A stretch of DNA of 64,000 nt from a virus (Duplodnaviria; Caudoviricetes): the IMG/VR virus record IMGVR_UViG_3300034170_000057. One strand, written 5' to 3'. Made by a program: the position numbers and the translations under genes. This document shows, one piece after another, positions 19,250-62,920 of the stretch (the first letter of the stretch is position 1; every line of letters starts with the position of its first letter). The notes beneath the pieces are model-generated. The model ran no database searches and had not been told where the DNA came from. It saw only the letters and a program-made list of their open reading frames with translations.

Positions 19250-20434
19250 ATGAAACAAGACCTGAGTTTCATCCAGCGTATGACGCCGGAACAGGCTGCG
19301 AAATACTACAACAAACGGAAAAGTTCGTACCGCCGTCTGCTGTCGAAATTTACCAGCCTGTTGCGCATTTTCTTCGGCAAGTCTTCCCGTTCGAATATCG
19401 CCACTGCATCCTCGGTTAAAGTCCGTGAAGTGCGCGGCGGTGCGGATAGCAAAGGCGGTGCCGGTGGCTTTGGGCTGTCCGTTCAAAAGGTCAAGATGCC
19501 CGGCCCGCGCCAACTGCAAAAGAGCCTCGACGCATTGGAAATGCGCGAATCCATTGACGAACTCGACGCCATTATCGACAAGTGCAATGCCACCGAAAAT
19601 GAGGGCATGAAAGCACTGGTCAAAGACATGATCAAAAACCGCAATGCTCTGGTGGAAGTTTACACCGAAGCGCTGCACGCCATGTCCGAAATGTCCGATA
19701 GTGCAATCCCTGACGAAGTGGGCGACCTGTTCAAACGCATTCAAAAGTATTTCGATGGTGTGGAAAAAACCCACATCGCGGGACGCAAGAAAGAGCATGC
19801 GGAAGCGGTGAAAGCTGCTAAAGACGCGGGCCTGTCGGAACCCACGGAACCCGATGAGGATGAACTCGCGTACTACCTCAACATCGGCACCAAAGACGGC
19901 GGCGTTGATTTCGTATTGAACTGCGACGTAACGCACTGGCGCAATTTCAGCGAAGGTTTCCACAAGGCGCTGACCGTCGTGGTCACTGCGCGTCTGGAGC
20001 CAACCGAAACCGCGTTCGCCATTCGCACCTACGTGAACATTCTTGATCGTGTGGCGCTGCCGTATCTGTACAACCTCGGCACCGAAATCAAAGGCGAAAA
20101 CACGGCGGCAATCGCGAAAAACTTCGTGAGTAATATCGACCGTGAAATTGCCCGTCATGACGTGGTGATGTTCGCTGCAAAAGCCGACCTCGCTGGTCTG
20201 GACGCAACCGAAGTCACAACCCGCCTGTCTGCAATCAAAGGCGTGTCCGGCGTCACCGTCGAAGCGAACGAAGTTATTCTGGAATTCCCGGATAATGATC
20301 GCAATGTTCAAGAAGCAGTTTTGAGCGTTTTCCGTGGCTTGCCAGTAATCAAAGCGCTGATCAAGAAAGGTTATACGCAGGCTCTGACCACTATTGATCA
20401 GAACGTTCATTCCTACAGCCTGACGCTGAAGTAA
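19250..20434 (+). CDS. putative virion (head) protein, 394 aa
   Basis: ORF track; contains IATASS motif shared with head proteins. Confidence 0.55.
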   Translation: MKQDLSFIQRMTPEQAAKYYNKRKSSYRRLLSKFTSLLRIFFGKSSRSNIATASSVKVREVRGGADSKGGAGGFGLSVQKVKMPGPRQLQKSLDALEMRESIDELDAIIDKCNATENEGMKALVKDMIKNRNALVEVYTEALHAMSEMSDSAIPDEVGDLFKRIQKYFDGVEKTHIAGRKKEHAEAVKAAKDAGLSEPTEPDEDELAYYLNIGTKDGGVDFVLNCDVTHWRNFSEGFHKALTVVVTARLEPTETAFAIRTYVNILDRVALPYLYNLGTEIKGENTAAIAKNFVSNIDREIARHDVVMFAAKADLAGLDATEVTTRLSAIKGVSGVTVEANEVILEFPDNDRNVQEAVLSVFRGLPVIKALIKKGYTQALTTIDQNVHSYSLTLK

Positions 20435-21340
20435 TTGCACTACTTCATTTCCAAGCCGTTAGATTTTCGTCTTTCGGCTTGGCCCCGTGGCGGCGATAAC
20501 TACATCACCACCTATAACACCGACCGTTATTTGATCGACATTAAAATGGTTCTCGATTATGTCGAAGAATCATTGAAGAAAACGCCGATGGCGTTCATCT
20601 TTAAAACCACGTTTACGCTGGTGAACATCTGGTCGATGTACAACAACATGAGCGTGGGGCTTGTCGATATGCCCCCGAAAGAAGTCCGGCGCACAGGCCT
20701 TGTGTTTACGTTCGCCCGGACGCTACGGAATAATGCTGACGTTCCAACCGTCAAGCACCAAACGTGGATGCGTGGCTATACCGCCATATGGGGAACAGCC
20801 GATAATCAGTCCGCAGATTTCATTAGCATTTCGATTCCGTTGAACATTCTGACACGTGCGCGCATGCAGCAAATGATGGAACGTGATCAGCGGTATTTGT
20901 ACGACATTGCAGGCGGATACACGAAAGCGATTATCCGGCAAAAGATCGGTTACACCGGTGGCGTTGAATCCACTGCTGGAAAACTCCTTTACCAGAATAT
21001 CCCAAGAGCCATGTTCTATACGGCCATGGATGATTGGAAATATGTTCTGGATTTCTGGAAGCGTATGCCCGATTTGTTGCATGTAGAATGGACGCCGAAA
21101 TTCATTGAATATTACGTCCGCTTTATTGCACCGAATCTGCCAATGCGCCGACGCAGTAAGTATTATGCACAGTACGAAGGTGAAGCGCAGGACAGCATTC
21201 GCGAATTCATTCTGCGTTTTGTGCAAAACCAAATCGAACCCGAGGAAGCTGGCCTAGCCGCGCTGCTGCCTTTGGAAGAATCCGCATTGCAAGATATTGA
21301 GACGCTAGTTGTTCAACTGTCTCAAGGGGTTGTGGAATGA
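20435..21340 (+). CDS. hypothetical protein, 301 aa (TTG start directly after the upstream stop)
   Basis: ORF track. Confidence 0.55.
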   Translation: MHYFISKPLDFRLSAWPRGGDNYITTYNTDRYLIDIKMVLDYVEESLKKTPMAFIFKTTFTLVNIWSMYNNMSVGLVDMPPKEVRRTGLVFTFARTLRNNADVPTVKHQTWMRGYTAIWGTADNQSADFISISIPLNILTRARMQQMMERDQRYLYDIAGGYTKAIIRQKIGYTGGVESTAGKLLYQNIPRAMFYTAMDDWKYVLDFWKRMPDLLHVEWTPKFIEYYVRFIAPNLPMRRRSKYYAQYEGEAQDSIREFILRFVQNQIEPEEAGLAALLPLEESALQDIETLVVQLSQGVVE

Positions 21341-22554
21341 CCACCGTTCACGAAGGCGCAACCTGTACAATTATCGAAGAGTTTTTCGACGACTTCGACG
21401 ATCCGGTAATCCCGACGGAAAATAGTCCGGCGCCGCTTGTTCGTTTGTTCGACACTGACAAATCGGTAATTGCCGAGGTTTACGCAAAGCCGTATCAAAG
21501 CCAGCCCGGTCACTGGATTGCAGATTTACCGATCCCGAATATGAACCTGCGTGACGCCGTTGATTTGGTTGCACGCTGGACGTTTTCTAGTGACGTTGGG
21601 CAGTATCAGGCACGTTCAATTATCACCGTGGAACCGGCGAGCGTTGGGCGTGAATCTGACGTGGTTATTATTTGCGGACGTGACACGCGCATGCAGTTGA
21701 GTGTGCCCGTCACGTACAAGCCGCCAGTAGCCGCGAAGAAAGCCGACATGGCCGCTGGCACCACCGCGAAGAAAGCAAAGGAGGGTGATCTATTAACGGT
21801 TTCTCTCTACTACAACAACAAAACGGTTTTCGCTGATTGGGACGTGGAAGACAAAGCAATTAAAGTCGAACGTCAAAAGAATCGTACCGTTATCGACATG
21901 CCTGCAATTATCGGTAATCCGCAAATGTTCCCTCTAACGATGCTGGTGGATCACACCCCAGCGCGTAAGATTGCCAAAACTACGATGACTTACAAAGTGT
22001 GGGCAATTACCCCGCAAATCCTGACGGCCAGCCGCCAGCTTGAGGATTACATTAACCGTGCGCGGATCGCGAACATTATTCCTGAATTGGAATACACGCA
22101 ATCCGATATCATGGAATATCTCTCGCGTGGGTTGAGTTTCTTCAACGGATTGCAGCCGAACATTACGAACTTTACCGGCACCAACATGCAAGGGCCTTTG
22201 CTCGATGCATGGCTGACTTGTTCGTGTATCTACGCGCTCGGTTCGCAGAACTTGGCCGAGGGTAGTTTGGCATTTGATTTCGGTGGGCAAACAGTCAGCT
22301 TGAACGTTGACCGAACCCCTGCAATCGAAAGCGCATTGGGCCGTATTGATGCGCAAATTGAAAGCCAAGTAAAACCGCTGAAAAAATTGTTAGGTCGTGC
22401 TGGTGCTTTGGGCGGCGATGGCAGTGTGGGCGGTGGCTTCATTGATTCAAGTCGTGCGTTCGGTATCCTTGGGATTTCGAATACTGCGATGACGCGTATA
22501 CCGGGTTATCCGGGACGTGGATCGACTGGCGGATTCTTCCGCAATTTCTTTTAA
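21337..22554 (+). CDS. putative virion protein, possibly head-tail adaptor/neck-like
   Basis: Helical C-terminal ~130 aa ending in a Gly-rich tail, reminiscent of neck/adaptor proteins; function is inference. Confidence 0.4.
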   Translation: MTTVHEGATCTIIEEFFDDFDDPVIPTENSPAPLVRLFDTDKSVIAEVYAKPYQSQPGHWIADLPIPNMNLRDAVDLVARWTFSSDVGQYQARSIITVEPASVGRESDVVIICGRDTRMQLSVPVTYKPPVAAKKADMAAGTTAKKAKEGDLLTVSLYYNNKTVFADWDVEDKAIKVERQKNRTVIDMPAIIGNPQMFPLTMLVDHTPARKIAKTTMTYKVWAITPQILTASRQLEDYINRARIANIIPELEYTQSDIMEYLSRGLSFFNGLQPNITNFTGTNMQGPLLDAWLTCSCIYALGSQNLAEGSLAFDFGGQTVSLNVDRTPAIESALGRIDAQIESQVKPLKKLLGRAGALGGDGSVGGGFIDSSRAFGILGISNTAMTRIPGYPGRGSTGGFFRNFF

Positions 22555-22573
22555 CGTGACGTGGGGCATAAAG

Positions 22574-22960
22574 ATGACCGAACAACCGATGACCGAACAG
22601 CAACTCAAAGATAAATATGATGTAGAAAATTGCACGTATTTGCAGCGTCTTCCGGAAGCCCTAGAAAAGGGCGTCATTGTTGACGATACCATTTTCCAAA
22701 ACATGGAAGAGGCGGCCACGCTTCTTAGCAAATCTAAATACGCGCTGCTTCACAATAAACCGTGGTCTGACATTATCGGTTCCAATGCGTGTGCGGCTGT
22801 ATTTGATCCGCTTACGAAATACTCATTGGTAATGGATGGAAGCCTCGGTCAAATGCTCGGTTGTCAGTTGTATACCGATGGTTTCATGGCTCCGCATTTG
22901 AAAGATAAAAGCCCGGAAACAATGGGCAAGGTTATCTTCGTGCCCCGCGACACTGAATAA
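22574..22960 (+). CDS. stand-alone paralog of part of the major capsid protein (128 aa; start re-called to 22574)
   Basis: 50-aa ungapped alignment to the MCP at 61820-62920 with 28 identities (WSDIIGSN...DP.TKY.L...G.LG...G.QL.TDGF.AP). Confidence 0.8.
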   Translation: MTEQPMTEQQLKDKYDVENCTYLQRLPEALEKGVIVDDTIFQNMEEAATLLSKSKYALLHNKPWSDIIGSNACAAVFDPLTKYSLVMDGSLGQMLGCQLYTDGFMAPHLKDKSPETMGKVIFVPRDTE

Positions 22961-22963
22961 ACG

Positions 22964-22998: not shown

Positions 22999-23847
22999 AT
23001 GACTTTTAATGCCGCCAAAGCCCGTGATGCTCTGGTTACTTCCGGTAAGACCGCAGTAACCAAAGTCGAAATTCGCGAAGCATTCCCAATCGACGACCGT
23101 TTCATGCGTATCGTTGCCGTTGCCTCTGCTGGCGCCAGCGCCGAACAGGTTTACGCTGGTATCAAATCGCAATTCAAGGGCGTTACCCCGATTCACGGTA
23201 CGTTCGTTTCGCTCGCCGCTGAACCGACCCTGCACCACTTCGAAGGTATCGTCGGCGTCGTTTCCGAACGCGTTGTCGTGAACGAAGAAACTAAGGCCGC
23301 TAATTACAAAGCTGTCGCCGCCAACATGTACATGGACGCAGACGAAAATCTGTGGACTCTGCGCAAAACCCAAACCGGCGAAGTAATGGTTAAATCCATC
23401 TGCGCCGACGACGCTCTGGTAATGCAGCAACTGCTGGCCGTTGCCAAAACCGACCTGAACGATTTCAACAACAAAAATCTGCACATGCAATCTGCACAAG
23501 ATCGTGCAATGGTGCAGGGCGGTGATTTGATCACCTACGTTTCGCAACAGTCGGCTGACCTGCAAATGGCAATCGCCTGCGCCGCAATCGACAACGAAGA
23601 CGGTTCGCCTACTCCGGAAATTTTCGTTGTGCGTCCGAACGGTCAAACCGAAACCGTCCACCGCGAAATGATCGTTGTTACTGCTGGCGCTGTGCAGCTG
23701 GAAGCGGAAGAGGCGCAAGATTCCATCGCCGTTGCCTCGGCTGCCGACGTTGATCGCTTCGCGGCCTTCTACAGCCGCGTGTATGCCCGCCGTCCTGCGT
23801 TCTTTGAAGAATTCATGACCCGCGTTCGCGCTCACGTGTTCTTCTAA
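22999..23847 (+). CDS. putative abundant virion/head protein, 282 aa
   Basis: Own TAATTTAA site, GGAGA SD and terminator; codon usage like the MCP; several AVAS motifs. Confidence 0.6.
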   Translation: MTFNAAKARDALVTSGKTAVTKVEIREAFPIDDRFMRIVAVASAGASAEQVYAGIKSQFKGVTPIHGTFVSLAAEPTLHHFEGIVGVVSERVVVNEETKAANYKAVAANMYMDADENLWTLRKTQTGEVMVKSICADDALVMQQLLAVAKTDLNDFNNKNLHMQSAQDRAMVQGGDLITYVSQQSADLQMAIACAAIDNEDGSPTPEIFVVRPNGQTETVHREMIVVTAGAVQLEAEEAQDSIAVASAADVDRFAAFYSRVYARRPAFFEEFMTRVRAHVFF

Positions 23848-32100: not shown

Positions 32101-32210
32101 ACCTGAAATCCAAGATTGCCGAAGTCGTGCGCAGCGGCATTAGCGTTTCGAACAAAGATCAGGCTCTGAAAGAGTTGTCCGAACTGACCTTCAAATATAA
32201 AACCCGCTAA
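26139..32210 (+). CDS. giant SF2 (SNF2-like) helicase/translocase, 2023 aa
   Basis: Q-motif FPHQE, Walker A LAPGGGKT, Walker B VAIDESH, motif III LTGT, motifs V-VI SEGHNLQ...W.P....QTAARVWR. Confidence 0.85.
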   Translation: MNRAMWKQNPIADVLRKKRLELQQQDELAEQLAAYARANGEDDDENDDENDDGDDSSEFVKSIRTISLEPARNMEYESFFYPKKERNFLVPILESLSDVTANINLFFRFMRLCMQSANQLSQYSEEQVEARISSIFVQIFQSKRTSSSVEQDVVAFLRASRRTAHSFHNVYRSKRYNEGLDIVLMGAGADPEKEGLPAPYFGVEDFKLGRSEYLESNNTHPMTDFARRGKWQSPIGERIIAAAREIHMFLWGTVASSERMIHRGIPLNTKFSDIERIWVKNTGLKLPTAGELITDMVVSNPFAEQFLQIEVIKQPSQAVKTFTEKVRNTRPAFNEQQLSPTAINSKIEDALNGANPKISPESELLNVTLRASIRFTLESDVAHFVSQTPESARPSLTRTNSWFSLYIAQVLRAKVSGTGKAYKVTNTSAIRMEHIPRYATSASTLKRVPALREQFGYVVEKTKGNAENMFITPQGTMAVRPSIDALQKTTLAEDFEKTSEELLELLSRNEIPLAAFQDDYRAEKWPWVDAQDLERMQELVKALDNFAGCSLGFDWDFGINIQATSTPGRTITSTSVGSVTPDSLAIADWLGFNLANEGEKPMKRSFSQSMYTLSHGEHTAWAYKRAEELYGAADDHLKFAKSGLVTNLVNLYMRIAYVDNKAPQLPELLAGAMRALNYQKLPTEQGFDFSQDYTKYLTQEGTLIDRHKGNVRGIILGLLETAMDMASGAQGTHLWNETFENLRNGDKTPRASEVSLELENHPDYFNSTISTAAEFARLYRYFGGQVFKQILDAINSVEIEHFANAKGGEQIVELGEMPDSPGRQYSISLTLQPNATLYKDVLPFAVMLGKYAPNSETIFAEAAEQVESIKPDPSFSSDDIKFPGMIGEDRAIFPHQEDVQSSLRKKNPPNFAILALAPGGGKTGQGIIDIACLMADMKEAGLVVRPLVICPNGLINTWCEEMKYFQGANWNAFPISSDVLSRWTAKNAPGEKFLSDLAVNAPPNTIFISSMTFIQGRNTRVCIGNAQVNFSQNLELVRRLGCNYVAIDESHNLKSFKSARHRAVKILTSSTTVKWLRLLTGTIMPDRAKDIEGQIALKAPHVFRAGDIANIKPDQEAEKDSGQVKIGDRIITTFTPLNGKRAVDKLGHYISFIVKEKKDWAYMLPSAIERFHPVPMVDYEGSDGTSAVEIEQQKLHEQLYRLVLDRTLEEMEPLLRQKAKAEKLADKGDGDDEEDEDDSDGKGPDTTDNDADFAGDKIKQKLWEKNIARFERLIICPQEDEAYDEVFGSMGEGFVSRKAKYIANLTAQHFNPQKWKRGERYIELDLVDFEGQLYVARKYNPGETRVAIPDGAKGKTPVEAPDYWKPEPKGKLIIITRYNASARAIYEALPSNYQSMAVKFTGDEPDRVKAFNDFKTDDRVQILIANEQGMSEGHNLQLASRMIRAEAPWGPGALAQTAARVWRPDAKGAIAAAKGEGGLTRDVVYLDWVLADNTMEVPKLARVISKTFGVARITEASNPLYQELLASVVVPTEKEDARLSLSVDMLASTAGLDDEPFNEMEDAYRRLNAVESKEFAEMRNTMKADMLPIEGAPNLEGSARMELVPFVANQPIPDQNNWGLLNVEVLMRDAELLKNYRETLRTKPVVTEWGTGRIVGFNTRGGKLSSLIVNLKNPPSGMAGRITIQTNMAYIAQRNITPEQEARFFEVSLAGTDTEEKRTASRQKRLEDQQKKQAEAEDREARIKKSQETDKIRVIKKEAKDGAVREDNEKKGRPINEGIYDTGGTVKIGGGKKLKATDNPKVGVVVEQEEFPEEAAEVPEVSLYPAYYHGFATLEAIPEGGDPQLKKAGFQFTPAFAYINVSNKKKFHAIYDWVYENFEVNDKLNDLFMSINNAFDEGQKNTHKLWYRLELAPVSELPAFFSVQKRMSSNRRAIRVFPIFTEEHVMLCVDLRTNPGIIKHIGKAIPNAGAKWMKSDGEWMYFGKNKTDLKSKIAEVVRSGISVSNKDQALKELSELTFKYKTR

Positions 32211-32255
32211 TGGGAAAAGGGCCAAGGAAGGCCCAATTAGCGACGGGAGAAAATA

Positions 32256-46066: not shown

Positions 46067-46071
46067 TTCCA

Positions 46072-46716: not shown

Positions 46717-46725
46717 GGAGTCGTC

Positions 46726-49053: not shown

Positions 49054-49057
49054 CGTG

Positions 49058-49093
49058 AAAGCGGGTTGTCCAATTTCGGGCACCCCGCTTTTT
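49058..49093 (+). terminator. intrinsic terminator
   Basis: AAAGCGGG-TTGTCCAATTTCGGGCA-CCCCGCTTTTT. Confidence 0.7.
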
Positions 49094-49119
49094 CCGTTGA
49101 ATATGGAGAATATTTTCTC

Positions 49120-50787
49120 ATGGCCGATCCTAGCTTTGAGGAACTGTGGCCTGTCCAACTGGATTTGGTTGGTCCCGGTGCTCCAATAGCGGAGCGTTCG
49201 ACTTTTCAAATGCGGGCAGTCGTTACTTTTGACGACAATTCGCAACACGAAGTCGAGGCAGAATGGTCTGTTGCTTCCGAACAGTACGGCACGATTACCC
49301 TGAGTGGTTTGTTTACTGCTGGATCGGTGCAGGCTGGTACGCGCCCGGTTCAAGTTTTGTGCAGGTATTACCACGCAGGTTCGGATTCCACGCTGACGGC
49401 AACAGTTGTTATTAACGTGCGGGATATTGATACACCGCCCGCCCTGATTTCTATTTCCATCGGCGGTAAACCCGAGGTGGAGAAAAACACAATTGAACCA
49501 TACGTAATTACAGCGAATTACGACAATGGCTCAAGCGCAATCGTTGTACCGACCACTTTTGTTTCCAGTCGCCCCAGTGTCGCCACAATTGACACTACGG
49601 GTTTAGCGCATTTCCAAAAGATTCGCGGTTCTGCAATGGTTCGATTCACCGCCTCTTACGCAGAGCATGGTGTGACGCGCCAGATTTTCATGGACATTCT
49701 GGTTGTCGATTCTTCGATTTATCCGGTTAAGGCTTTTGTGATCGGGCCGACAATTGTTACGGAGCGCGGACGGGCTAGTTTTGGTCTGGATGTTCTTTTT
49801 GACAATGGCAAAAATAATGAGGTTGTTGCTAATTGGATCAGCACCAATCCATTGGCCGGTACGATTTCATGCACGGGCGTTTTCTGCGCCGACGCAGTTG
49901 AAGGTGTGGTTTCCACCACGATTATTGGCACCTTCGAATTTGATGGAATCGTCACTAGTGCGTCAATTGAATTAAGCGTCGTCGGCCTCACGGTGCGCGC
50001 TGAAGCAATTGAAATCGAAGGCCCTCCGAAAGTGCGCGAAGGCTTGGTTGTTCAATATTACACGACGTTGATTTTCAGTGACGGCACGCGTAAATCCGTA
50101 GTGGCGAAAATCCACACGGTGACGACTGTGGGCCACCTTGACGACGGCAACCAATTCTATGCGGCGCCTAAAGTTGAAGCGGAAACTCCCGTTAATCTCA
50201 TGGCGTATTACGAAAACCTTTCGGCTTATAAAACCATTGACGTTGTGCCGTCCACTACGCTGCCTGTCAGTTCGTGGATTGAATTGCGCTCGCCAATGTA
50301 CGTCGGTGAATATCAGTCGCTTAAATTCCACGTCGTTTATGCAGACGGTACAGACATTGTGCTGCCCGCTAAGTGGACGCTTTCCAATAACCATATCGCG
50401 TCGATTTCCAATGCTGGAGTTTTACACGCGGTGCAGGTAATGGAAACCGCAGAACTGACTATTTACGCTGCGCTGTCAATTAGCGGTGTTGAATTGGAAG
50501 CGAGTTTGCCCGTGACCCTTATCGACAATCGCACGTACCCAATCCATACCCGCATAGAAGGGCCGGAAACGTTACGTGCAATGGTGCCCACTATGTACAG
50601 GGCGCTAGTCGAATTCAGTGATGGTTCCGAACGCGTAGCAAGTGCTTTGTGGTTCTGCTCTGACGACAACGTTTCAGTCGTTCTCGGCGTTGTTACCGCA
50701 ACCGTTCCCGGCACTTACATGCTGCAAACTTCCTACACTCTCCAACACGAAACAGTCACCGCGACGAAAGAGATTATTGTGACATGA
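49120..50787 (+). CDS. Ig-like repeat virion protein (start re-called to ATG 49120, 555 aa)
   Basis: About six repeats of I.GP..V.E......V.F(D/S)DG....V.A.W; GGAG SD; the track's TTG start lies inside the terminator. Confidence 0.8.
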   Translation: MADPSFEELWPVQLDLVGPGAPIAERSTFQMRAVVTFDDNSQHEVEAEWSVASEQYGTITLSGLFTAGSVQAGTRPVQVLCRYYHAGSDSTLTATVVINVRDIDTPPALISISIGGKPEVEKNTIEPYVITANYDNGSSAIVVPTTFVSSRPSVATIDTTGLAHFQKIRGSAMVRFTASYAEHGVTRQIFMDILVVDSSIYPVKAFVIGPTIVTERGRASFGLDVLFDNGKNNEVVANWISTNPLAGTISCTGVFCADAVEGVVSTTIIGTFEFDGIVTSASIELSVVGLTVRAEAIEIEGPPKVREGLVVQYYTTLIFSDGTRKSVVAKIHTVTTVGHLDDGNQFYAAPKVEAETPVNLMAYYENLSAYKTIDVVPSTTLPVSSWIELRSPMYVGEYQSLKFHVVYADGTDIVLPAKWTLSNNHIASISNAGVLHAVQVMETAELTIYAALSISGVELEASLPVTLIDNRTYPIHTRIEGPETLRAMVPTMYRALVEFSDGSERVASALWFCSDDNVSVVLGVVTATVPGTYMLQTSYTLQHETVTATKEIIVT

Positions 50788-52082
50788 TTATTTCCCTTGC
50801 CGCATCACCTGCTGATTTCAAGCAGTTCGAATGGATGTACAACGCGGGTAAAAGTTTTAAATTGCGGCTGGACGATACGCCTGTCACGGTCGAGGCTGAC
50901 GATTTGGTCGGTTTCCGTAAAGCAACACGGGGGCCGACCGCTGGCGCGTATCAAGTGGTACTCGCCAAATACCCGCAAAAGATATACCGGTCGATCAAAC
51001 AGGAACAGGTCGATAAATTCATCAAGCAATTCAAAGAGTACAAGGGGATTCCGGAAGCGCCAAAAAAGGAAGGCGCACGGCACCAGTACATGCGGAAAAA
51101 CCAGTTGGAAAATGATCGTCAGGAATCACAGTTTTATGTGAGCCCGTCGAAGCCTCGTGAAGTTCACAGCTACGACCGCGACGATTACCAATGGCGAAAG
51201 GTAATGCACCCTGTGAACGTGGCAACCAAGCATCACGGGACAACCCGTGCCACTATTCGACCGGGTGACATTGTGGGCATGCGCTACCTGCGCAAATCCC
51301 ATGGTGGTTATGTGATTATGCCAAACGGCGAACGCGTGTTGATTTCGCATGAACTGTACGAAGAAATCACGAACAATACCGACATTGAACCGCGTGCCCA
51401 GCAGCAGACGGGACTTGTTGAATTTGCCGAGTTGGCAAAGTCACTTCCTATCCGCTCGCGTGCAATTAAAATCCCGCGTAAACCACGTGACGTTATGACA
51501 CGCGTTTCCCGCACGGGCGTAACCGAAACCGCGAAGCATGTGGCGCGCAATAAGCCACTGACCACCACTTTCGATTACAAAGATATCGACGAAGATTTCG
51601 CATTCGAACCAGAAGACGAAGAAAACCTGTTGAATCCACCTGAAGAACAGGAAGATTTCCCGGATGAAGGGGCGTCTAATACTGTAAATAAAGGAGAAGA
51701 ACCGGGTATTACTTCGCTTGACGACGAAGACTTCGAAGAGGAAGACGATCCAGAAATGGACTTCCACAAAGATCAGGAAACCGATGAGGATGGCGAGCCA
51801 ATCGAGGATGACACCGAAGTAATTGCACAGGAAGGACAAGTGCTGATTGCGCGGGATAATGCCGAGTGGGTAATCGTCAGCCAAGAAGAGCATAACATGT
51901 CGGAAACGCTTGTGCTTTTCAACGAGGAATCCAAAGCTCTTCGTCATTACAAAGTACCGCTCGGTGAAGACTTGCGGAATCTGAAATCTGTTACGGTCGG
52001 TCGCATTATTACTGGCCCTGAGTTGGACAAGATTTTGGAAAAGGCCGCTGACCTTGAAATGACTGCTGGGAAACGTCTATGA
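50784..52082 (+). CDS. hypothetical protein, 432 aa, with a basic N-terminal half and a long acidic linker
   Basis: ORF track; starts MIISLAAS like 58644. Confidence 0.65.
   Translation: MIISLAASPADFKQFEWMYNAGKSFKLRLDDTPVTVEADDLVGFRKATRGPTAGAYQVVLAKYPQKIYRSIKQEQVDKFIKQFKEYKGIPEAPKKEGARHQYMRKNQLENDRQESQFYVSPSKPREVHSYDRDDYQWRKVMHPVNVATKHHGTTRATIRPGDIVGMRYLRKSHGGYVIMPNGERVLISHELYEEITNNTDIEPRAQQQTGLVEFAELAKSLPIRSRAIKIPRKPRDVMTRVSRTGVTETAKHVARNKPLTTTFDYKDIDEDFAFEPEDEENLLNPPEEQEDFPDEGASNTVNKGEEPGITSLDDEDFEEEDDPEMDFHKDQETDEDGEPIEDDTEVIAQEGQVLIARDNAEWVIVSQEEHNMSETLVLFNEESKALRHYKVPLGEDLRNLKSVTVGRIITGPELDKILEKAADLEMTAGKRL
51680..51690 (+). promoter_or_regulatory. motif A TACTGTAAATA, ~390 nt upstream of the ligase
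   Basis: Exact copy. Confidence 0.5.
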
Positions 52083-54339: not shown

Positions 54340-55497
54340 ATGAAAATTGCCGTGTACGCGATTGCGAAAGATGAACAACACAACGTTGAAACTTGGCTGG
54401 AAAATGTGAAGGATGCAGACGGCATCTTTGTTCTGGACACTGGGAGCAAAGACGCCACAATAGGCCTGCTGGAAGCGGGCGGCGCTGTAGTCAACCAGAT
54501 GCACACCGGTAAAACATTCCGGTTCGACCACGCCCGTAATGAGGCAATGGCATATATTCCAAATGACTACGACGTTTGCGTTTCTCTCGATTTCGATGAA
54601 CGTTTGTCCCCCGATTGGCGGGAAGTAATCGAAACACAATTCACAGATGAAATGACTACAGCCAATTACACGTTGGTTTATTCGCACGATTCGGAAGGGA
54701 ACATTTTAATGTCCTATCCGCGCCTTGCGATTCACCGTCGCAACACATGTACATGGCAATACCCGGTGCATGAAATACTGATTGCGCATGAAGCTGGACA
54801 GAAGCCTACCCTGCCAATCGCTACAGTGCATTACGGCAATCCAAAACCGTCCGGGCATTATATCGACCTGCTTAAAATCGCATACGACGAAAACCCAAAA
54901 GACGCACGCAACGTGCAGTACCTTGCACGCGAATACTGCGGTATGGGTAATTTCTCTATGGCGATCCCGCTTTATCAGCAACACGTGGACATGGAAGAAT
55001 CTGCGCCATTCCGTGCAGAGAGCTGTATGCGCATTGCGCAAATGTCCGAAGATTTCGCGACCGTAGAATGGTGGTATCGTCACGCAATTCAACATTGCAA
55101 CAATATCCGTGAACCGTTCTGCAAACTCGCACAGTTTTATCTCAAGCACGGCAAGTACGAACACGCGATTGCGTGCGTCAAGTCTGCGCTGGAACTCGAA
55201 AAGCCAGATTACGATATGATTTTCGAGGATATGTATTACGCAGGCACGTGGTGTGATCACATGCTTATGGCCTGTTACCAACAACTCGGACATTACCGTT
55301 TCGCTACGCAGCACCGCGACAATTTGTTGCGTATGCATTTGAACGGAAATATCCCGGTAGATATTGCAAGCGACATTGTGCAATTGAACCAGACAATTCA
55401 GGAAGTCTTCTATGATTATTGCTCTAGCGTGGGCGTTCAAGGACGAATCGCACGTGAAGGAAATGGCAACGTGGCAGAAACGCCTGAGCAAGGCTGA
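54340..55497 (+). CDS. GT2-family glycosyltransferase with C-terminal TPR-like repeats
   Basis: MKIAVYAIAKDE, VLDTGSKDAT, FDHARNEA, DxD motif SLDFDE, W.YPVHE, then helical repeats (YLARE, A..WY..AI...REPF..LA). Confidence 0.85.
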   Translation: MKIAVYAIAKDEQHNVETWLENVKDADGIFVLDTGSKDATIGLLEAGGAVVNQMHTGKTFRFDHARNEAMAYIPNDYDVCVSLDFDERLSPDWREVIETQFTDEMTTANYTLVYSHDSEGNILMSYPRLAIHRRNTCTWQYPVHEILIAHEAGQKPTLPIATVHYGNPKPSGHYIDLLKIAYDENPKDARNVQYLAREYCGMGNFSMAIPLYQQHVDMEESAPFRAESCMRIAQMSEDFATVEWWYRHAIQHCNNIREPFCKLAQFYLKHGKYEHAIACVKSALELEKPDYDMIFEDMYYAGTWCDHMLMACYQQLGHYRFATQHRDNLLRMHLNGNIPVDIASDIVQLNQTIQEVFYDYCSSVGVQGRIAREGNGNVAETPEQG

Positions 55498-56740
55498 GTT
55501 TCTGAAACTCTCGAAGAGCGGGAAAGAGCGATACATTAAACTCTACCCGCATTCGAGTCACCGTTTCCTCATGACCGGTAATGTCGATCCGGATAATATC
55601 GAAAAGAAAGCACCGGCCCCCACTGGTGCTGCTCGATTCAAATCCGAGGACGAAATTCAACAGCAGCGCAAACAGCGTATTGCGACCCGCAAAGATATTT
55701 CGGACTACAACAAAACGAATGTCGCGGTAATCAATCCGCAATCTTTGCAGGCTCTCGATCAGGTAAAAGACAGCCACCTACGCGAAGCATCCGACAATAT
55801 CCAACGCAATAAGAAAGATATTGTGTCGGCTGTGCGTCAGCAGCAAAAGAAACTCCCGAACATGTACGGCAAAGGCTTGGGCGCCGTTCGGGATCTGGTA
55901 TCCGGTGAACAGCACCCGGACGATATGAGTACCACGCAAAAGCACGCAATGCAGCGCGTTTTGGGCGGCGTTGCGACCATGGCCCTTATGGGTGCTGGCA
56001 TCTTGGCGTGTGGCATGGCTGCTGCGCCGCTGGGCGTTCTTATCGGTGCAGGCCTGTTTAACGTGTGGGCCGGTTCGAAGCACGGTAAAAACCTGCGTGA
56101 CGATATCGACGAATTGCGTGCAGCACGTGAGAAGAAACGTCGTGCAGAACGTAAAGAAAACGGTTTCGACGTGGACGATGATGAGCCCCTGACTGCACGG
56201 CGTGGTTCCGCACAGAAAGATCGTGAAGAACTGGCGAAGAAAAAGAAAGAATCCGAAAAACGTTCGAAAAAGAACAACAAGGAAAGCGATTACAAAGCCG
56301 CTGCGTCTTCGGTATTTACGCCGAACACTTCCACGGAAATGACCGACGATCAAACTATCGGCCTGATTCTGGATCACGTTTCGGACGTGCTGAAATACCA
56401 ATCGGTTAAGGATTTCCAAGAGCATCGCGACGAAATGTTCGCTAATGCCAGCGCGACCCTGCCGAAAGAGGATTTCAACGAACTGCGTTATCTGCTGACC
56501 TATGCACATTGTCGCGATTACACCCCGGTCGGTGATGGCGTTTCGTTTAGCTGTGCAGGCGGTTATCCAACACTGGAAAAACTGTTTAAACGCATGGGTT
56601 ACATTGTCAGCGCTTCGGAAGTTGGCGATCAGGTTGCGTACCATTTTGATAATGGGAAAGGCCGCGCAACGTTGGGCAAATTCGACGACAATTTCTATAT
56701 TCGTTACGAAGGTGATTTCGATTACCGCACCGTTCTTTAG
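55412..56740 (+). CDS. putative virion (ejection-type) protein with a hydrophobic helical hairpin
   Basis: VLGGVATMALMGAGILACGMAAAPLGVLIGAGLFNVW inside a charged protein; AAASS and ANASA motifs. The start is uncertain (86-nt overlap). Confidence 0.55.
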   Translation: MIIALAWAFKDESHVKEMATWQKRLSKAEFLKLSKSGKERYIKLYPHSSHRFLMTGNVDPDNIEKKAPAPTGAARFKSEDEIQQQRKQRIATRKDISDYNKTNVAVINPQSLQALDQVKDSHLREASDNIQRNKKDIVSAVRQQQKKLPNMYGKGLGAVRDLVSGEQHPDDMSTTQKHAMQRVLGGVATMALMGAGILACGMAAAPLGVLIGAGLFNVWAGSKHGKNLRDDIDELRAAREKKRRAERKENGFDVDDDEPLTARRGSAQKDREELAKKKKESEKRSKKNNKESDYKAAASSVFTPNTSTEMTDDQTIGLILDHVSDVLKYQSVKDFQEHRDEMFANASATLPKEDFNELRYLLTYAHCRDYTPVGDGVSFSCAGGYPTLEKLFKRMGYIVSASEVGDQVAYHFDNGKGRATLGKFDDNFYIRYEGDFDYRTVL

Positions 56741-56748: not shown

Positions 56749-57087
56749 ATGCTCACGTTTTTGAGTGATCCTGACGAACGTCATTTGCCCATGCATGAGC
56801 GCACCACGGTTTGGGTTTGCGATGGCGATAAACGCATTGCAACCCTTGCCGCTGTGCCTGACGAAAGCGCAAACCGTTCGCAGCAAACCGCAATGTGGAC
56901 CGCAAAAATCCACCACAAACAATTCGATCCTTTCGATCATGATCAAGAATTGGACGAAGAAAATCCAAACGTTCATGTGGCACAAAGTGAGGAAGGATTA
57001 CTATCGCTGAATAATCCGAATAAGCTGGCAATTGCAGACGCCCGCCAGTGGGTGCGCGATCATTACACTGGAGGTTCCAAAAAATGA
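56749..57087 (+). CDS. hypothetical protein, 112 aa
   Basis: AGGAGG SD. Confidence 0.7.
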   Translation: MLTFLSDPDERHLPMHERTTVWVCDGDKRIATLAAVPDESANRSQQTAMWTAKIHHKQFDPFDHDQELDEENPNVHVAQSEEGLLSLNNPNKLAIADARQWVRDHYTGGSKK

Positions 57088-57905
57088 TTGTCGATCAACA
57101 CGGAAACGATATAGGCAATATGTCGCTAGCGTTCAATTTCGGTACGCCAGTTTCGACCATTGAACTCAACGGCGCTCGTTTGAACGAAGCCGGACAGCTG
57201 CCTATCAGCGCAGAGTTTTCTGGCACTGGTGAAGCGGTAACGCTGGAAGCAAACACGTGGCTGCGCCGTGCTGCTGAATATCACAATCTTTCGCGCAATA
57301 TTAACGATTACATTTTGGTGGCCGTTCCTGCAATGGTTACGCGCCTCCCCAATACCAATGGGGATTCCGTAGACCTTAAGCAATTCACCGCGTGGAATGA
57401 ACCGTGCGCACGCATGGCTTACAAAACGTGGGAAGGCCGCCCGATGTATATCGAACACCAGCACAAACCTGAATGGGTTCGTGGTCTGATTTTCGGTACG
57501 TTTATGCGCCCGACGCCGTTCAAAAACATCGAGAAATTGGTAATGCTCGCAGCCCTCGACCGCACCCGCGATCAGGTTCGTTGTGCGCGTGTTCTGAAAC
57601 GTGAATTGAACACGTATTCCATGGGCATGATGTACAGCGCTTATCAGTGTTCCGTTTGCGGGCATATTGCCGGTAAAGGAATCGGTGCGCCGTGCAGCCA
57701 TACGCGACCGGGTAAACCGACATATCGTTTGACCGATGGCCGTTTGGTTTATCGCCGTTGCATGAATATCACAGGTTTCGAATTGTCGCTGCTGGAAAAC
57801 GTTGGTGGTCGCCACGGCCAAGACGGGTACACGCAAGGCTTTGGTGATCCGTCCTATGTTTCCGCAATCGGGGATATTATTCTCGATCCGAAATCAATGC
57901 AGTAA
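57084..57905 (+). CDS. putative prohead (capsid maturation) protease with a Cys/His zinc insert (start re-called to 57084)
   Basis: PNTNGD, YIEHQH (His), YSMG (Ser), CSVCGH...CSH, GFELS...DP..VSA: layout of HK97/assemblin-fold proteases of large phages; upstream of scaffold and MCP; GGAGG SD. Confidence 0.65.
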   Translation: MIVDQHGNDIGNMSLAFNFGTPVSTIELNGARLNEAGQLPISAEFSGTGEAVTLEANTWLRRAAEYHNLSRNINDYILVAVPAMVTRLPNTNGDSVDLKQFTAWNEPCARMAYKTWEGRPMYIEHQHKPEWVRGLIFGTFMRPTPFKNIEKLVMLAALDRTRDQVRCARVLKRELNTYSMGMMYSAYQCSVCGHIAGKGIGAPCSHTRPGKPTYRLTDGRLVYRRCMNITGFELSLLENVGGRHGQDGYTQGFGDPSYVSAIGDIILDPKSMQ

Positions 57906-58481: not shown

Positions 58482-58490
58482 AAAACGTCG

Positions 58491-58643: not shown

Positions 58644-59006
58644 ATGGAAATGTTCATTGCGTTAGCAGCCTCGCCATTGTCTGATATGCACCAGCCCAAA
58701 ACATTTGATTTTCGTAGTCTGAAGCATCATTTGCATAACATTCAAGAAATCCGAAAGGGTTTAGTTCATTGCGAAATCAACTACGATCACGAATGTAATG
58801 GCAAGCCGCATCATAGCGCCCGCGTTGACTTCGTTTCTGATATGGGTACAGGTAGCATTCAATTCACCCTTGAAGAAACGAATTGGAAATACGAGGGTGA
58901 AACGGATATTAATGGCGAAAACACGAAATACGCAGGGTATACCGCACACAATTCTGTGCAAGCGGTTTGCCGCAAGGTTCGTGGGCTGCTGTTGAAACTA
59001 CTCTGA
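58644..59006 (+). CDS. hypothetical protein, 120 aa (head module)
   Basis: AAGGAG SD; TAATTTAA site at 58611; starts MEMFIALAAS. Confidence 0.7.
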   Translation: MEMFIALAASPLSDMHQPKTFDFRSLKHHLHNIQEIRKGLVHCEINYDHECNGKPHHSARVDFVSDMGTGSIQFTLEETNWKYEGETDINGENTKYAGYTAHNSVQAVCRKVRGLLLKLL

Positions 59007-59074
59007 AGTTTTTGAACTTTGTAATTTTTAAACGTGAGGTATAAAAACCCACAAACTCTTAAATGGAGTGAACC

Positions 59075-61030
59075 ATGTCGAATCGAAAATCGCGCCTGCG
59101 CGGCATCGTCGTTATGGCTGATAACCAAGAGCAAGCAATGGAGCTTTTCAGCGCTGTCGCTTCCGGCACCTATCGCGTTATGGAAAGTAAAAGCGGCGAT
59201 TTTGCCGTTGCTACTGCCATTTCGGATATGCAACTTCTGAACCCGATTGACGGCGAAGAAATGGTTGCAGTTGCGGATGCGGATAAGCATGAAATGGTGG
59301 CTGTAGCCTCGAATGCTGGTGAGGATATGGACGCATTCTATCAAGCCTGCTCTAGCGGTTGCGGCGCACACGTTATTACTGACAGTCTTGAACTGTTGGA
59401 TAAATGCCCAGCTTGCGCTTCCGACCTCCCAAAAATGGAAGACGCTGACTTGAAAACGAACTCTCAACCAAAAGAATTGCTGCTCGCCGTAGCAACTGAT
59501 CGCGTTTCTGCTGTTGAAGCATTCCGCGCTCTGGCCTCTGGCGAATGCGAGACTTTCGCCGCTAAATGCGACGACGTGATGGTGATTTCGAACCAACCAA
59601 TCAACTTCGATATTTACAAAAATATCCCAGCTGTTGCGGTTGCCGAATACACCCCACAACTGGCCGTGGCATCCAGCGCCACCGAAGACGGCAAATTGAA
59701 GGTGCATTACCTGACCACCGCTAGCGATAGCGGCCAAGAAATGCACATCATCGCCAGCAATCCCTCCCCGATTTTCTGCCCTGTTACCAACATGGGCCTC
59801 GTTGATCCGGAAGACGAAATGAGCGCAGAGCAAAAAGCTACTGCAAGCGCTGATTTCCTCGGCACTGCTGCCAAGTGCAAAGCCTCTGACGAAGAGGAAG
59901 AAGAGGACGAAGACGAAGACGAAGACGAAGACTTCGACGACGAAGACGAAGAGGAAGAAGACAGCGAAGAGGAAGAAGAGGAAGACGAAGACGACAACGA
60001 AGAAGAGGAAGAAGATGACGACGATCTTTCCCTCGGTCTGGCTGCCTCGAAAAAAGGCAAAAAGAAAAAAGGCGGCGTAAAGCGCAAGGTAAAACCTGAA
60101 ATGGCTACCGCAAACGCACAAACCGACGCAATCGTACCGGCTGCCGAACAGGCCCCGGCTGTTGCTGTCGCAACCGAACAAACCGAAGCAGAACAAGCCG
60201 CAGCACCAGTTGTTGCCGCTGTTGTTGAAACCACGGCTCCGGTCGAAGTTTCCGCTTCTTTCGTTTCCATCGCCAGCGCCGAAATGAAAGAAAATTCTGT
60301 TGATGTTAATTATGTAGGTAACGTCCAAGGCGAACCTACGTGGATGGCATTTCACAACGGTATTCCTTTCGCGAAAGCAATTGCTTCGGCTTCCGAAAAC
60401 CCTGCCACTTTTGCTGATCCAGCAATTGGCCGTGCTTTCAAAGCAATCGCCAGTGAACAAGGCGTGCATGCTGCGTTGGAACAACTTCGTTTCGAAGAAA
60501 TCAAACCGGTTCTGCAAATCGAACAGGTTGTTGCGGAACAAATTCAATCGCAAGTTACCGAACAAGGTAACGTGCTGGCTGAAGCAACCGCACGCGATAA
60601 ATCGGAACTCGCAACCCGCTACGAATCCGCTCTGGCGACGGCTGCACACGGTATTAACACCGGTTATTTCCGTGACATGAGCAACCCGATTGTGACCGCG
60701 CTCGCTTCCTCTTTGGAAGACGTAGGTCTGGCCGGTGCTGCTGAACTTCTGCAACGTGCTTTCATTGATCACTCGCCGGAATACCATGCCAGCATCTTGG
60801 CAAAGGCCGCTGAAATCATGCAGTACGAGCAAGTGGTTCAAAACCAGATGGCAACCGCCGTAACGCAAATCGAACCGAAAAACGTGGCTACCGCGTCCTC
60901 GCTTTCGATGGGCCGAGCGGTTCAACGTCCTGCGCAAGTGCAACAAGAAAACGTGATCGCGACCGCTTCGGCTGAGCAACCACAAAACACCGACTTCCAA
61001 AGCAAGCTGAAAGGCTTGAAACTGTTCTAA
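59075..61030 (+). CDS. putative prohead scaffold/core protein, 651 aa
   Basis: Between protease and capsid genes; Ala-rich, ~35-residue D/E block followed by KKGKKKKGG, many A[VT]AS motifs, amphipathic C-terminus FQSKLKGLKLF. Confidence 0.6.
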   Translation: MSNRKSRLRGIVVMADNQEQAMELFSAVASGTYRVMESKSGDFAVATAISDMQLLNPIDGEEMVAVADADKHEMVAVASNAGEDMDAFYQACSSGCGAHVITDSLELLDKCPACASDLPKMEDADLKTNSQPKELLLAVATDRVSAVEAFRALASGECETFAAKCDDVMVISNQPINFDIYKNIPAVAVAEYTPQLAVASSATEDGKLKVHYLTTASDSGQEMHIIASNPSPIFCPVTNMGLVDPEDEMSAEQKATASADFLGTAAKCKASDEEEEEDEDEDEDEDFDDEDEEEEDSEEEEEEDEDDNEEEEEDDDDLSLGLAASKKGKKKKGGVKRKVKPEMATANAQTDAIVPAAEQAPAVAVATEQTEAEQAAAPVVAAVVETTAPVEVSASFVSIASAEMKENSVDVNYVGNVQGEPTWMAFHNGIPFAKAIASASENPATFADPAIGRAFKAIASEQGVHAALEQLRFEEIKPVLQIEQVVAEQIQSQVTEQGNVLAEATARDKSELATRYESALATAAHGINTGYFRDMSNPIVTALASSLEDVGLAGAAELLQRAFIDHSPEYHASILAKAAEIMQYEQVVQNQMATAVTQIEPKNVATASSLSMGRAVQRPAQVQQENVIATASAEQPQNTDFQSKLKGLKLF

Positions 61031-61045
61031 TCGGAGAAATTCCCC

Positions 61046-61783
61046 ATGATCGTTGATAAATACACTCGCGCTTTCAACACCGAATTCCGCGACGTTGAAC
61101 CCGGCCTCGACCTGCGTGAAGACGGCCAAGCGCTCGTTTTCTCGAAAGTGAATGGCCGTACTTACGTGCGCCCATCGCAAGGCGTTACTGGCGAAATCTT
61201 CGCCGGTATTTCCGTGAACCGGAACACCCCGCCTTCGTTCCTGCCGAAAATCGTTTCCGGTTCCATCGTTCCGGAAAGCGGCGTTGTTGACCTCGGTCGT
61301 CTGCCACTGAATGGCCAAATGCTGGTTAAAGTCGGCGGCGACGTTCTGGAAATTTCCGCTGCTGCGCCTGTTGAAGGCAAAGTGCAAAGCGTCGGCACCA
61401 AACTGTATTTCTTCACCGGCACTCCAGCCAACGGCGGCACCCCTGCTGTTCCGGGCGATACCGGCAAAGAACTGTTTGTGCAGATGATGTACGAACCGAC
61501 CGTTTCCGAAGCCAAAACCGTGCGCGGTGATGCGCCAATCGGCGGCCTGTCGAGTTCCGAACTGGGCCGCATTGCGGTACTGACCCGTGCCGAATCCGTC
61601 GCTACCACTTTCTACGACGCCGCTGCCGATTGGTCGAACGTTCTGCGTCCGAAATTGGGCGTTGACGGTAAATTCACTTCGAGCGGTCCCGGCGAAATCG
61701 TCAACACTGTGTTGGTTCTGCAAACCCCAGTGGCTGACGCTTCTTCCTACGGCCCTCTGGTCGTCAAAATCACCAACGCTTAA
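61046..61783 (+). CDS. putative capsid decoration/minor head protein, 245 aa
   Basis: Immediately upstream of the MCP; beta-rich; GGAGA SD; highly expressed codon usage. Confidence 0.55.
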   Translation: MIVDKYTRAFNTEFRDVEPGLDLREDGQALVFSKVNGRTYVRPSQGVTGEIFAGISVNRNTPPSFLPKIVSGSIVPESGVVDLGRLPLNGQMLVKVGGDVLEISAAAPVEGKVQSVGTKLYFFTGTPANGGTPAVPGDTGKELFVQMMYEPTVSEAKTVRGDAPIGGLSSSELGRIAVLTRAESVATTFYDAAADWSNVLRPKLGVDGKFTSSGPGEIVNTVLVLQTPVADASSYGPLVVKITNA

Positions 61784-61819
61784 TCGCGGATCATTCGAAA
61801 ATCTTTGGAGATACAAAAC

Positions 61820-62920
61820 ATGTTGAACAAAATTCAAGGCGCCCGGATGGTACTGGCTGGTACTGGTGATCCGCTCGAATCCCTGCGTTATTCGAAAGGT
61901 GGTGAACTGGCCCTGTCCGCCAGCACCGGCGAATTCAACGCCAGCTCGCAAAAAGACCTCGCGCTGCAAATCGGTCGTTTGATGCAGGCTGTACAAAGCG
62001 GCGTGATCGTTCCTGAAGCTCAACAAATGGCAACCGCTTCGACTCGCGAAGATCGTCGCGATATCATGCGCGAAGCAATGGCTTCCGACGAAAACTGGAA
62101 AGCACTGGGCGCGAACATTGCGCAACAGGTTTACGAGCAATCCGAGCGCGACGGTTTCCTGCGTAAACTTTCGCAAGGTAACACCCTGCGTCAGGGCGAA
62201 GTACAACGCGTTCCAATGCCTCCGCATGATTCGATGGCAGTTGTTGCCACCGGCCCTGCTGGCGTCGGCTACCAGAACATTCGCGCACGTCAATTCCTGC
62301 CTGCCGAATTCGAAATCATCGCCAACGTTCGCGTAAACGCGCTGGACATGGAACAGGTTTCGGGCGATCTGCTGGAACACGCTTACAACGACGCGCTGCA
62401 ATCCATGATGGTGCAGGAAGACCGTCTGTGGAAAATCGCAGCTGACGCAACTGTCGGCATGATGAACCCAATCGAATACATCGCGGGCGAACTGACCACC
62501 AAAAACCTTGGTCGTCTGCGCACCGCTGTGACCGACTGGAACCTGCCCGCAACCACCGCGATCATTTCGAACGATTACTGGTCCGATATCATCGGTTCGA
62601 ACGATTTCGCAACCATGCTCGATCCGATCACCAAGTACGACTTGGCTCTGAACGGCCAGCTGGGTACGCTGGTTGGTCTGCAACTGCTGACCGATGGTTT
62701 CCGCGCACCGAACCAAAAGGTTCTGGATCGTGGCGAAATCTACGTTGTTGCCAGCCCTGAACACCACGCCGCGTACAGCACCCGTGGCGGTATCCAATCC
62801 CGTCCGGTTGACTACGCGCACGAAGGTTCGACCGCCAAAGGCTGGATGCTGTCCGAAGCGTTCTCGTTCGTTCTCGCCAACAACCGTTCCGTAGTGAAAG
62901 GTAAGCGTCTGGTTCGTTAA
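61820..62920 (+). CDS. major capsid protein (HK97 fold; start re-called to ATG 61820, 366 aa)
   Basis: Size, position after scaffold/decoration genes, strong codon bias, GGAG SD; E-loop-like LRQGEVQRVP, backbone helix LLEHAYNDALQSMMVQEDRLW, C-terminal GWMLSEAFSFVLANNRSVVKG. Confidence 0.8.
   Translation: MLNKIQGARMVLAGTGDPLESLRYSKGGELALSASTGEFNASSQKDLALQIGRLMQAVQSGVIVPEAQQMATASTREDRRDIMREAMASDENWKALGANIAQQVYEQSERDGFLRKLSQGNTLRQGEVQRVPMPPHDSMAVVATGPAGVGYQNIRARQFLPAEFEIIANVRVNALDMEQVSGDLLEHAYNDALQSMMVQEDRLWKIAADATVGMMNPIEYIAGELTTKNLGRLRTAVTDWNLPATTAIISNDYWSDIIGSNDFATMLDPITKYDLALNGQLGTLVGLQLLTDGFRAPNQKVLDRGEIYVVASPEHHAAYSTRGGIQSRPVDYAHEGSTAKGWMLSEAFSFVLANNRSVVKGKRLVR

Follow-up and report, generated by a model that had tools for sequence, protein, structure and literature searches.

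A recurring A-[VT]-A-S motif in the head proteins of a Lu11-like jumbo phage as a probable prohead-protease recognition site

The head module and its motif

The stretch of DNA considered here (the window) comprises 64,000 nucleotides of a tailed-phage genome (Caudoviricetes; IMG/VR record IMGVR_UViG_3300034170_000057), and its genes all lie on the + strand. The source is a Lu11-like jumbo Pseudomonas phage, the DNA of its head module being 79% identical to that of Pseudomonas phage HRDY3 and 78% to that of phage Lu11, two jumbo myoviruses with genomes of 280-314 kb. Here, I follow up a short motif, A-[VT]-A-S, that recurs in the predicted head proteins of this phage and which a preliminary description, drawn from the sequence alone, had taken for the cleavage code of a prohead protease. 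Searching with the major capsid protein (MCP) returned 96 phage records, among them PaBG, NCTB, the Dickeya JA phages and the Erwinia Y3-like phages, a group that has been named 'Lupandier' (PMC7412058).

Gene assignments were taken from PHROG matches; proteins lacking an established name are referred to by the start coordinate of their gene. The core of the module is formed, in this order, by the head maturation protease (57084..57905; phrog_18299, E 5e-95), whose open reading frame (ORF) is open from a GTG at 57048 while relatives start at the ATG of 57084, a scaffold-like protein of 651 residues (59075..61030), a virion structural protein (61046-61783), and the HK97-fold MCP of 366 residues (61820..62920, with an alternative start at 61805; phrog_2522, E 3e-115). 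The same order is found in Lu11, HRDY3, JA29, Y3 and the loci L016-L021. Further motif carriers are a protein encoded just upstream of the protease (55412..56740, 442 residues) and two head-cluster proteins at 19250..20434 (394 residues) and 22999..23847 (282 residues, 15.6% Ala; phrog_17573), the latter adjoining a head-tail connector gene (21337-22554) and a fragment resembling part of the MCP (22517-22960). Pfam returned nothing useful for the protease, the MCP, the scaffold-like protein, 22999 or 19250; the label 'ATPase', which PHROG and RefSeq attach to the scaffold-like protein, is unsupported, as Pfam finds no ATPase family in it.

Enrichment of the motif

The strings listed in the preliminary description, near-variants included, are all present at the genes to which they had been ascribed. 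In its strict form the motif occurs ten times in the window, namely six times in the scaffold-like protein, twice in 22999 and once each in 19250 and the MCP, and not at all in the remaining ~66 + strand ORFs. Given each protein's own composition, 1.22 copies would be expected (Poisson P ~7e-7), and permuting the residues into eight alternative orders yields 0-2 copies, so that the enrichment persists after correction for composition. For the scaffold-like protein alone the figures are 6 observed vs 0.16 expected with the strict motif and ~8 vs 1.3 with a relaxed one, and A-x-A-S in general is found 28 times in the window vs 9.6 expected. Codons vary among the copies, and the motif therefore acts at the protein level; a repeat at the level of DNA was ruled out on the same ground.

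Genome-wide tests were run on Lu11 and on the Erwinia phage Y3. The Lu11 genome was assembled from pieces and its genes were called by a log-odds model of codon usage, because it carries very long antisense ORFs. Across the whole of Lu11, A[VT]AS is found 19 times vs 5.4 expected, and 10 of 11 permuted controls give 4-8 copies, the remaining one, [VT]ASA, which gives 14, overlapping the motif itself. In Y3 the corresponding pattern is S[EQ]S[SG], with 16 copies observed vs 5.3 expected, 7 of them in the homologue of the scaffold-like protein.

One alternative is that the motif reflects chance, or low-complexity composition, in proteins rich in alanine. Its carriers are indeed Ala-rich (16% in the scaffold-like protein, and a similar content in 22999) and the pattern was picked by eye. 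However, the excess is calculated against that very composition and the permuted controls are flat, the protein encoded at 16688 holds no strict copy in spite of its 27.7% Ala, and the enrichment is replicated in two further genomes at positions that are conserved; chance is accordingly hardly credible as an explanation.

Conserved sites in the scaffold-like protein

In the scaffold-like protein an N-terminal domain is followed by zinc-ribbon modules (C..GCG.H...CPAC; in the window phage the second of them is degenerate), a run of ~60 consecutive Asp/Glu residues, a patch rich in Lys and, at the C-terminal side, a helical domain that is conserved. It was aligned across 12 lineages (the window, Lu11, the metagenomic contigs L016-L019, PaBG, L020, NCTB, L021, JA29 and Y3), a site being regarded as supported in a relative when [AS]x[AS]S was matched within 4 alignment columns; there are thus 11 relatives in which each site can be sought. 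Aligned linker positions hold AVAS, ATAS, AIAS, SLAS, SLSS, ASAS, ALAS, SESS, SESG or SQSS. The strict copies of the window protein begin at residues 27, 76, 197, 255, 605 and 629, and are referred to below, together with two near-variants, as A to H in order along the chain.

The best conserved are sites B and C, each supported in 10 of the 11 relatives, to be compared with an average of 1.6 for random residues of the window protein. Site B (AVAS, residues 76-79; 59300..59311) lies ~10 residues before the first zinc ribbon and reads AVAS, ATAS, SLAS, SESS or SNSS in relatives. Site C (AVAS, residues 197-200; 59663..59674), located before the second, degenerate module, is kept in all six distant relatives, its forms being AVAS, AIAS, SLSS, ASAS, ALAS, ATAS and ALSS. 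Site D (ATAS, residues 255-258; 59837..59848) precedes the acidic run and is ATAS or AVAS in close relatives; in most lineages a second site (ALAS or ATAS followed by DD) stands immediately before that run.

Further conserved positions precede and follow the acidic run, lie beyond the Lys-rich patch and occur twice in the C-terminal tail, and at three of them the window protein has near-variants: KCKAS near site D (59873-59887), and GLAAS (site E, 60035-60049) and MATAN (site F, 60101-60115), which flank the Lys-rich patch. In the columns of site E relatives carry the strict sites LSLAS, LSVSS, ESESS and ESESG, and in those of site F MATAS, VATAS, EATAS and VAVAS. Towards the C-terminus, site G (ATAS, residues 605-608; 60887..60898) is found in a variable tail and reads ATAS, ATAA, SVAS or NASS in close relatives, and site H (ATAS, residues 629-632; 60959..60970), 20 residues from the end of the protein, is strict in 8 of 11 relatives (ATAS, AVAS, SIAS, ATAS in PaBG, SQSS, SESS).

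Copy A (AVAS, residues 27-30; 59153..59164) behaves differently. It belongs to a conserved helix-like segment, EQA..F.AVA.G, and its counterparts in distant relatives are AVAT, AAAK, AVAQ, KTAT or QTAV, with no switch to S-x-S; for these two reasons it is probably part of a structural helix and not a cleavage site.

In HRDY3 (L001 10890-10960) the scaffold-like gene appears as two adjacent coding sequences, each annotated as 'ATPase', which are its two halves; between them the frame shifts by one base in an A-run of the Lys-rich patch. That the gene is naturally split by domain next to site F was ruled out on account of this frameshift, whose cause is slippage at the A-run or else an error in the sequencing.

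The predicted site in the major capsid protein

As the preliminary description had it, the string MATAST occupies residues 70-75 of the MCP, counted from the ATG at 61820. The site proper is A71-T-A-S74 (62030..62041), and a cut at A73|S74 would remove 73 residues, amounting by calculation to 18.9% of the mass. The MCP of PaBG is reported to lose ~20% on maturation (PMC7412058). By calculation, that protein would lose 20.6% if it were cut in the corresponding A-V-A|A, and the published loss fits the removal of 73 residues.

The proposed cut also coincides with a structural boundary. In an AlphaFold2 model of the MCP the predicted local distance difference test score (pLDDT) is 85, with a dip at residues 61-80, and comparison with HK97, D3, T7, HRP29 and encapsulins gives HK97-fold matches with Z 14-17 that start at residues 73-76 of the model. 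The sole solved capsid protein similar in sequence is the Gp27 MCP of PDB 6WKK, a chain of 280 residues whose residue 6 corresponds to residue 76 of the query; no paper mentioning this entry was found. Both alignment and model thus place the N-terminal extension outside the HK97 fold. Among close relatives the site is ATAS or AIAS in all, despite a variable linker, and in most of 120 homologues, with linkers that are likewise variable, a small-x-small-small string comes right before the conserved RRE helix. The loss of about 73 residues, first suggested in the preliminary description, is a prediction with which the PaBG figure and the position of the fold agree.

Which bond would be cut can be approached by comparing the conserved sites, in which positions 1 and 3 are Ala or Ser, position 2 is free, and position 4 is S, A, G or N. 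Since the third residue is always Ala/Ser and the fourth is more tolerant, P1 was placed at the third, in agreement with the preliminary description, and A-x-A|S is most likely the scissile bond. A variant of the same proposal shifts the register by one residue, to A-x-A-S|x, and would have the mature MCP start from T75. The residue that follows the serine is likewise small or acidic in most cases (G, N, S, A, T or D), as might suit such a cut. Yet tolerance is greatest at the fourth position (S, A, G, N, and even H or F in relatives) and the third is strictly A/S; P1 tends to be the residue of a protease site under the tightest constraint, and the herpesvirus assemblin cuts between Ala and Ser. 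The shifted register is thus possible, though rather unlikely.

Other carriers and the switch from alanine to serine

The sites in the remaining carriers are conserved as well. Protein 19250, which shares 33-75% overall identity with its counterparts in HRDY3, Lu11 and PaBG, has a conserved basic leader of ~50 residues ending in ATAS at residue 51 (19400-19411), a site that is ATAS also in HRDY3 and Lu11 and ATAA in PaBG. In 22999 there are two strict copies: AVAS at residue 40 (23116-23127), which is AVAS in HRDY3, ATAS in Lu11 and ITAS in PaBG, and AVAS at residue 244 (23728-23739), which is ATAS in HRDY3, ATAA in Lu11 and VSAA in Y3 and JA29.

Protein 55412, where the string KAAASS was confirmed, has two relaxed sites. 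The first, AAAS (56297-56308), is absent from HRDY3 and appears as AVAF in Lu11, AVAS in L016 and L017, AAAS in L018 and TAAS in L019; the second, ANAS (56441-56452), is ASAS in HRDY3, ATAS in Lu11 and AGAS in L016 and L017. The protein further presents a long Gly/Ala-rich hydrophobic stretch of membrane-type appearance (about residues 184-220), after which come a highly charged region and the relaxed sites; this combination may mark a head protein that is internal or ejected.

In the portal protein (phrog_16240) of the relatives the N-terminal ~55 residues are unconserved save for one site right before the conserved core, which reads ATAA in Lu11 and HRDY3, ATAG in PaBG, ALAS in NCTB, STSS in JA29 and SESS in Y3. 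Another case concerns a zinc-ribbon protein of 70-74 residues, in which two ATAS copies of Lu11 correspond to SQSS and SESS at the aligned positions of Y3. This small protein (Lu11 gp235, L030 8132-8353; Y3 5416-5628) is annotated as 'DNA ligase', has both copies in its N-terminal half, and is encoded among tail genes in Lu11, whereas in Y3 its gene immediately precedes that of the portal.

Unrelated proteins thus change letters together, from A-x-A in one lineage to S-x-S in another. The Ala content of the two proteomes is nearly equal (8.7% in Lu11 vs 8.4% in Y3), wherefore the switch is not compositional, and a proteome-wide shift from Ala to Ser was ruled out. From these alignments a broader motif emerges, [AS]-x-[AS]-[SAG], with A-[VT]-A-S among its dialects, and its coordinated A-x-A/S-x-S switch constitutes the strongest argument for a cleavage code.

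The same distribution might instead belong to an element that is conserved but never cut, serving for docking, as a hinge, as a small-residue linker between domains, or as an epitope to which scaffold, portal or chaperone binds. The sites do sit at domain boundaries, and several copies precede zinc ribbons, in the scaffold-like protein as well as the small protein of Lu11 and Y3, which suggests a motif-plus-ribbon module. Against an uncut element stand the dependence of the enrichment on residue order, permuted orders occurring at expectation, and the concerted change of letters in unrelated proteins without any shift in composition; moreover, the MCP of a relative, PaBG, does lose ~20% of its mass, and the PaBG homologue of the scaffold-like protein is absent among 14 Coomassie-visible virion bands. 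A docking or linker role is therefore improbable.

A third possibility ascribes the motif to O-glycosylation, as the acceptor sequon of a GT2-type glycosyltransferase encoded at 54340-55497 (phrog_13126). In all the relatives examined this gene belongs to the head module and stands invariably next to the protease, and the motif usually ends in Ser. However, at conserved sites that serine is replaced by Ala, Gly or Asn (ATAA and ATAG in the portal, ATAN in the scaffold-like protein) and it is positions 1 and 3 that are fixed; the sequon would leave unexplained why the PaBG MCP loses mass, and most copies are located in the scaffold-like protein, which is unseen in PaBG virions. A glycosylation signal is, on this evidence, very unlikely. 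As to the enzyme itself, faint TPR matches are obtained with some relatives, and glycosylation of head proteins by its product is possible.

N-terminal leaders

Three proteins of the window, without similarity to each other beyond this feature, begin with a short leader: MIISLAAS in 50784 (50784..50807), MIIALAWAF in 55412 (55412-55438) and MEMFIALAAS in 58644 (58644-58673). The first and the last had been pointed out in the preliminary description; relatives conserve all three, and the codons differ from one leader to another. In Y3, at least 7 proteins without other mutual similarity start with a leader of the form M-x-I-F-[VI]-S-L-S. The leaders end in A-L-A in the window and in S-L-S in Y3, and on this comparison the former are the A-L-A counterpart of the latter; these 8-residue N-termini are a further instance of the switch from alanine to serine. 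The internal proteins of T4 bear a 10-residue capsid-targeting sequence that ends in the gp21 motif, and by analogy N-termini of the MIISLAAS type look like a short shared leader of that kind.

The prohead protease

The enzyme expected to read these sites has 111 homologues, none with a Pfam domain, and a PDB profile search with their alignment gave no match. Its AlphaFold2 model has a pLDDT of 80. Foldseek against the PDB returned weak E-values (0.065), which made a comparison by VIA-align necessary; the best match was T4 gp21 (5JBL; Z 9.7, root-mean-square deviation 3.0 Å, 138 of 166 residues), followed by herpesvirus proteases with Z 5-6.6. His137 and Ser191 are invariant across 50 homologues, and their contexts, YIEH and YSMG, resemble ELNH(85) and VSSRG(140) of T4, with a spacing of 54 vs 55 residues, His85 and Ser140 being presumably the catalytic residues of gp21. 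By its model, then, the protein is a probable serine protease with the fold of T4 gp21 and herpesvirus assemblin (MEROPS clan SH), gp21 ranking first and the herpesvirus enzymes after it.

A putative maturation pathway

By analogy with T4 and SPN3US the motif is read as a recognition site: A-[VT]-A-S is probably the local form of the recognition and cleavage motif, [AS]-x-[AS]-[SAG], of the prohead protease. During prohead maturation the protease would remove the N-terminal 73 residues of the HK97-fold MCP, cut the scaffold-like protein at ~7 linker sites into small pieces, and trim leaders or tails from 19250, 22999 and 55412; in relatives it would also trim ~55 residues from the N-terminus of the portal. 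The scissile bond would lie between the third and the fourth residue, A-x-A|S, and leaders of the form MIIALA|AS may serve as capsid-targeting sequences do in T4. As regards how such a specificity arose, I would give even chances to a gp21-fold protease whose P1 preference has shifted from Glu to a small residue, resulting in an assemblin-like A|S cut, with substrates that co-evolved as A-x-A in Lu11, HRDY3 and the window phage vs S-x-S in the Erwinia and Dickeya phages.

Several points weigh against the proposal. The motif pattern was chosen post hoc, and outside the scaffold-like protein its excess in the window is modest (4 copies observed vs ~1.06 expected). About 5 chance matches are expected per genome and some carriers are clearly due to chance, the strict motif being therefore weak as a stand-alone predictor. 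The copy at residue 27 of the scaffold-like protein, the CPACAS of zinc ribbons and helix-embedded AIAS or ALAS sit in conserved folded segments, where copies may never be cut, and some linkers of MCP homologues (e.g. PEVKVS) are without a clear small-x-small site. The protease itself contains zero copies; it gives no hit to the Pfam protease families (Peptidase_S77/U9, S78, S21) at E <= 0.01, and an hhalign comparison of its profile with T4 gp21 was not significant. Finally, no proteomic or N-terminal data were found for the window phage or its relatives, the mass loss of PaBG being approximate only; the paper on the Dickeya JA phages contains no proteomics, and the literature yielded neither a publication describing a cleavage motif nor a processing map for the Lu11/PaBG group.

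Motif matches in Lu11 gp244 and in tail-fibre proteins of Y3, which are unconserved in paralogues and orthologues, were set down to chance. The use of the motif to reveal head proteins genome-wide is limited by such chance hits. The cleavage code itself, as put forward in the preliminary description, is the best-supported reading; I infer both the cleavage and the identity of the cut bond, and one of the listed scaffold sites, that at residue 27, is probably left intact.

If the reading is correct, motif and leaders predict the mature ends of the MCP, the portal and the scaffold fragments, as well as which proteins are packed into the head of phages of the Lu11/PaBG group. Head cargo would then become readable from sequence, and the A-x-A/S-x-S switch across all head substrates would provide a clean natural case of protease-substrate co-evolution, open to testing between lineages.

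Neighbouring genes and antisense frames

The fragment at 22517-22960 (147 residues) matches only positions 208-255 of the MCP family phrog_2522 and is a truncated MCP paralogue adjoining the connector gene. Its counterpart in Lu11, gp106, has 287 residues and is annotated as 'major head protein', and that in PaBG has 146 residues and is annotated as 'endolysin'. The product of 16688-18133, the Ala-rich protein mentioned above, has 481 residues, is also rich in Lys and Pro, and carries repeated KRKPGRPKK units of histone- or AT-hook-like appearance.

Long ORFs on the - strand, at 58859-62821, 28404-32636 and 46063-49374 (1320, 1410 and 1103 residues, respectively), overlie real genes of the + strand. 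TTA, CTA and TCA are seldom used as sense codons in the window (2.1, 3.1 and 2.5 per 1000), and the codon-aligned antisense frame is open for this reason; gene callers that favour the longest ORF pick the wrong strand both here and in Lu11.

Comparison with known systems

Prohead proteases of the T4 and phiKZ types are known to cut after Glu, hence a small-x-small specificity, if true, would widen the range of the family and tie phage enzymes closer to the Ala|Ser cut of herpesvirus assemblin.

The window phage has much in common with the T4 gp21 system: the protease fold, the gene order protease, scaffold, MCP, a predicted N-terminal MCP piece that falls within 65-75 residues, a scaffold with many sites, and short N-terminal leaders ending in the motif. 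On the other hand, gp21 acts at L/I-x-E| sites in gp23, gp22 and internal proteins, whereas the motif of the window phage fixes Ala/Ser and not Glu, the latter occurring merely as the variable middle residue of the Erwinia and Dickeya dialect. There is no sequence-level family match between the two proteases, and the scaffold-like protein, with its 651 residues, zinc ribbons and long acidic run, is unlike the T4 scaffold.

A further parallel is offered by the jumbo myoviruses phiKZ (gp175), 201phi2-1 and SPN3US (gp245), with A/S/G-x-E| sites, in which likewise one motif, with a small residue at its first position, marks the MCP, the portal and many head proteins. In SPN3US all mapped prohead cuts follow AXE, in many head proteins (PMC10052503). 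The window phage departs from this code in having Ala/Ser and not Glu at the third position, the likely P1, and in belonging to the Lu11/PaBG 'Lupandier' lineage.

With HK97 (gp4/gp5) it shares an HK97-fold MCP (Z ~15) whose N-terminal extension ends where the fold starts; unlike it, HK97 has no separate scaffold and a delta domain of 102 residues, to be set against a predicted 73-residue piece and a separate scaffold-like protein in the window phage.

Lastly, the M and R sites cut by herpesvirus assemblin (MEROPS S21) have the form (V/L/I)-x-A|S. The likeness extends to the fold (Z 5-6.6) and to the predicted A|S pair, with a hydrophobic or small residue two positions before it. In contrast to assemblin, the protease of the window phage is far closer to the gp21 fold and is not fused to the scaffold, and its resemblance to the A|S specificity of the herpesvirus enzyme may be convergent.

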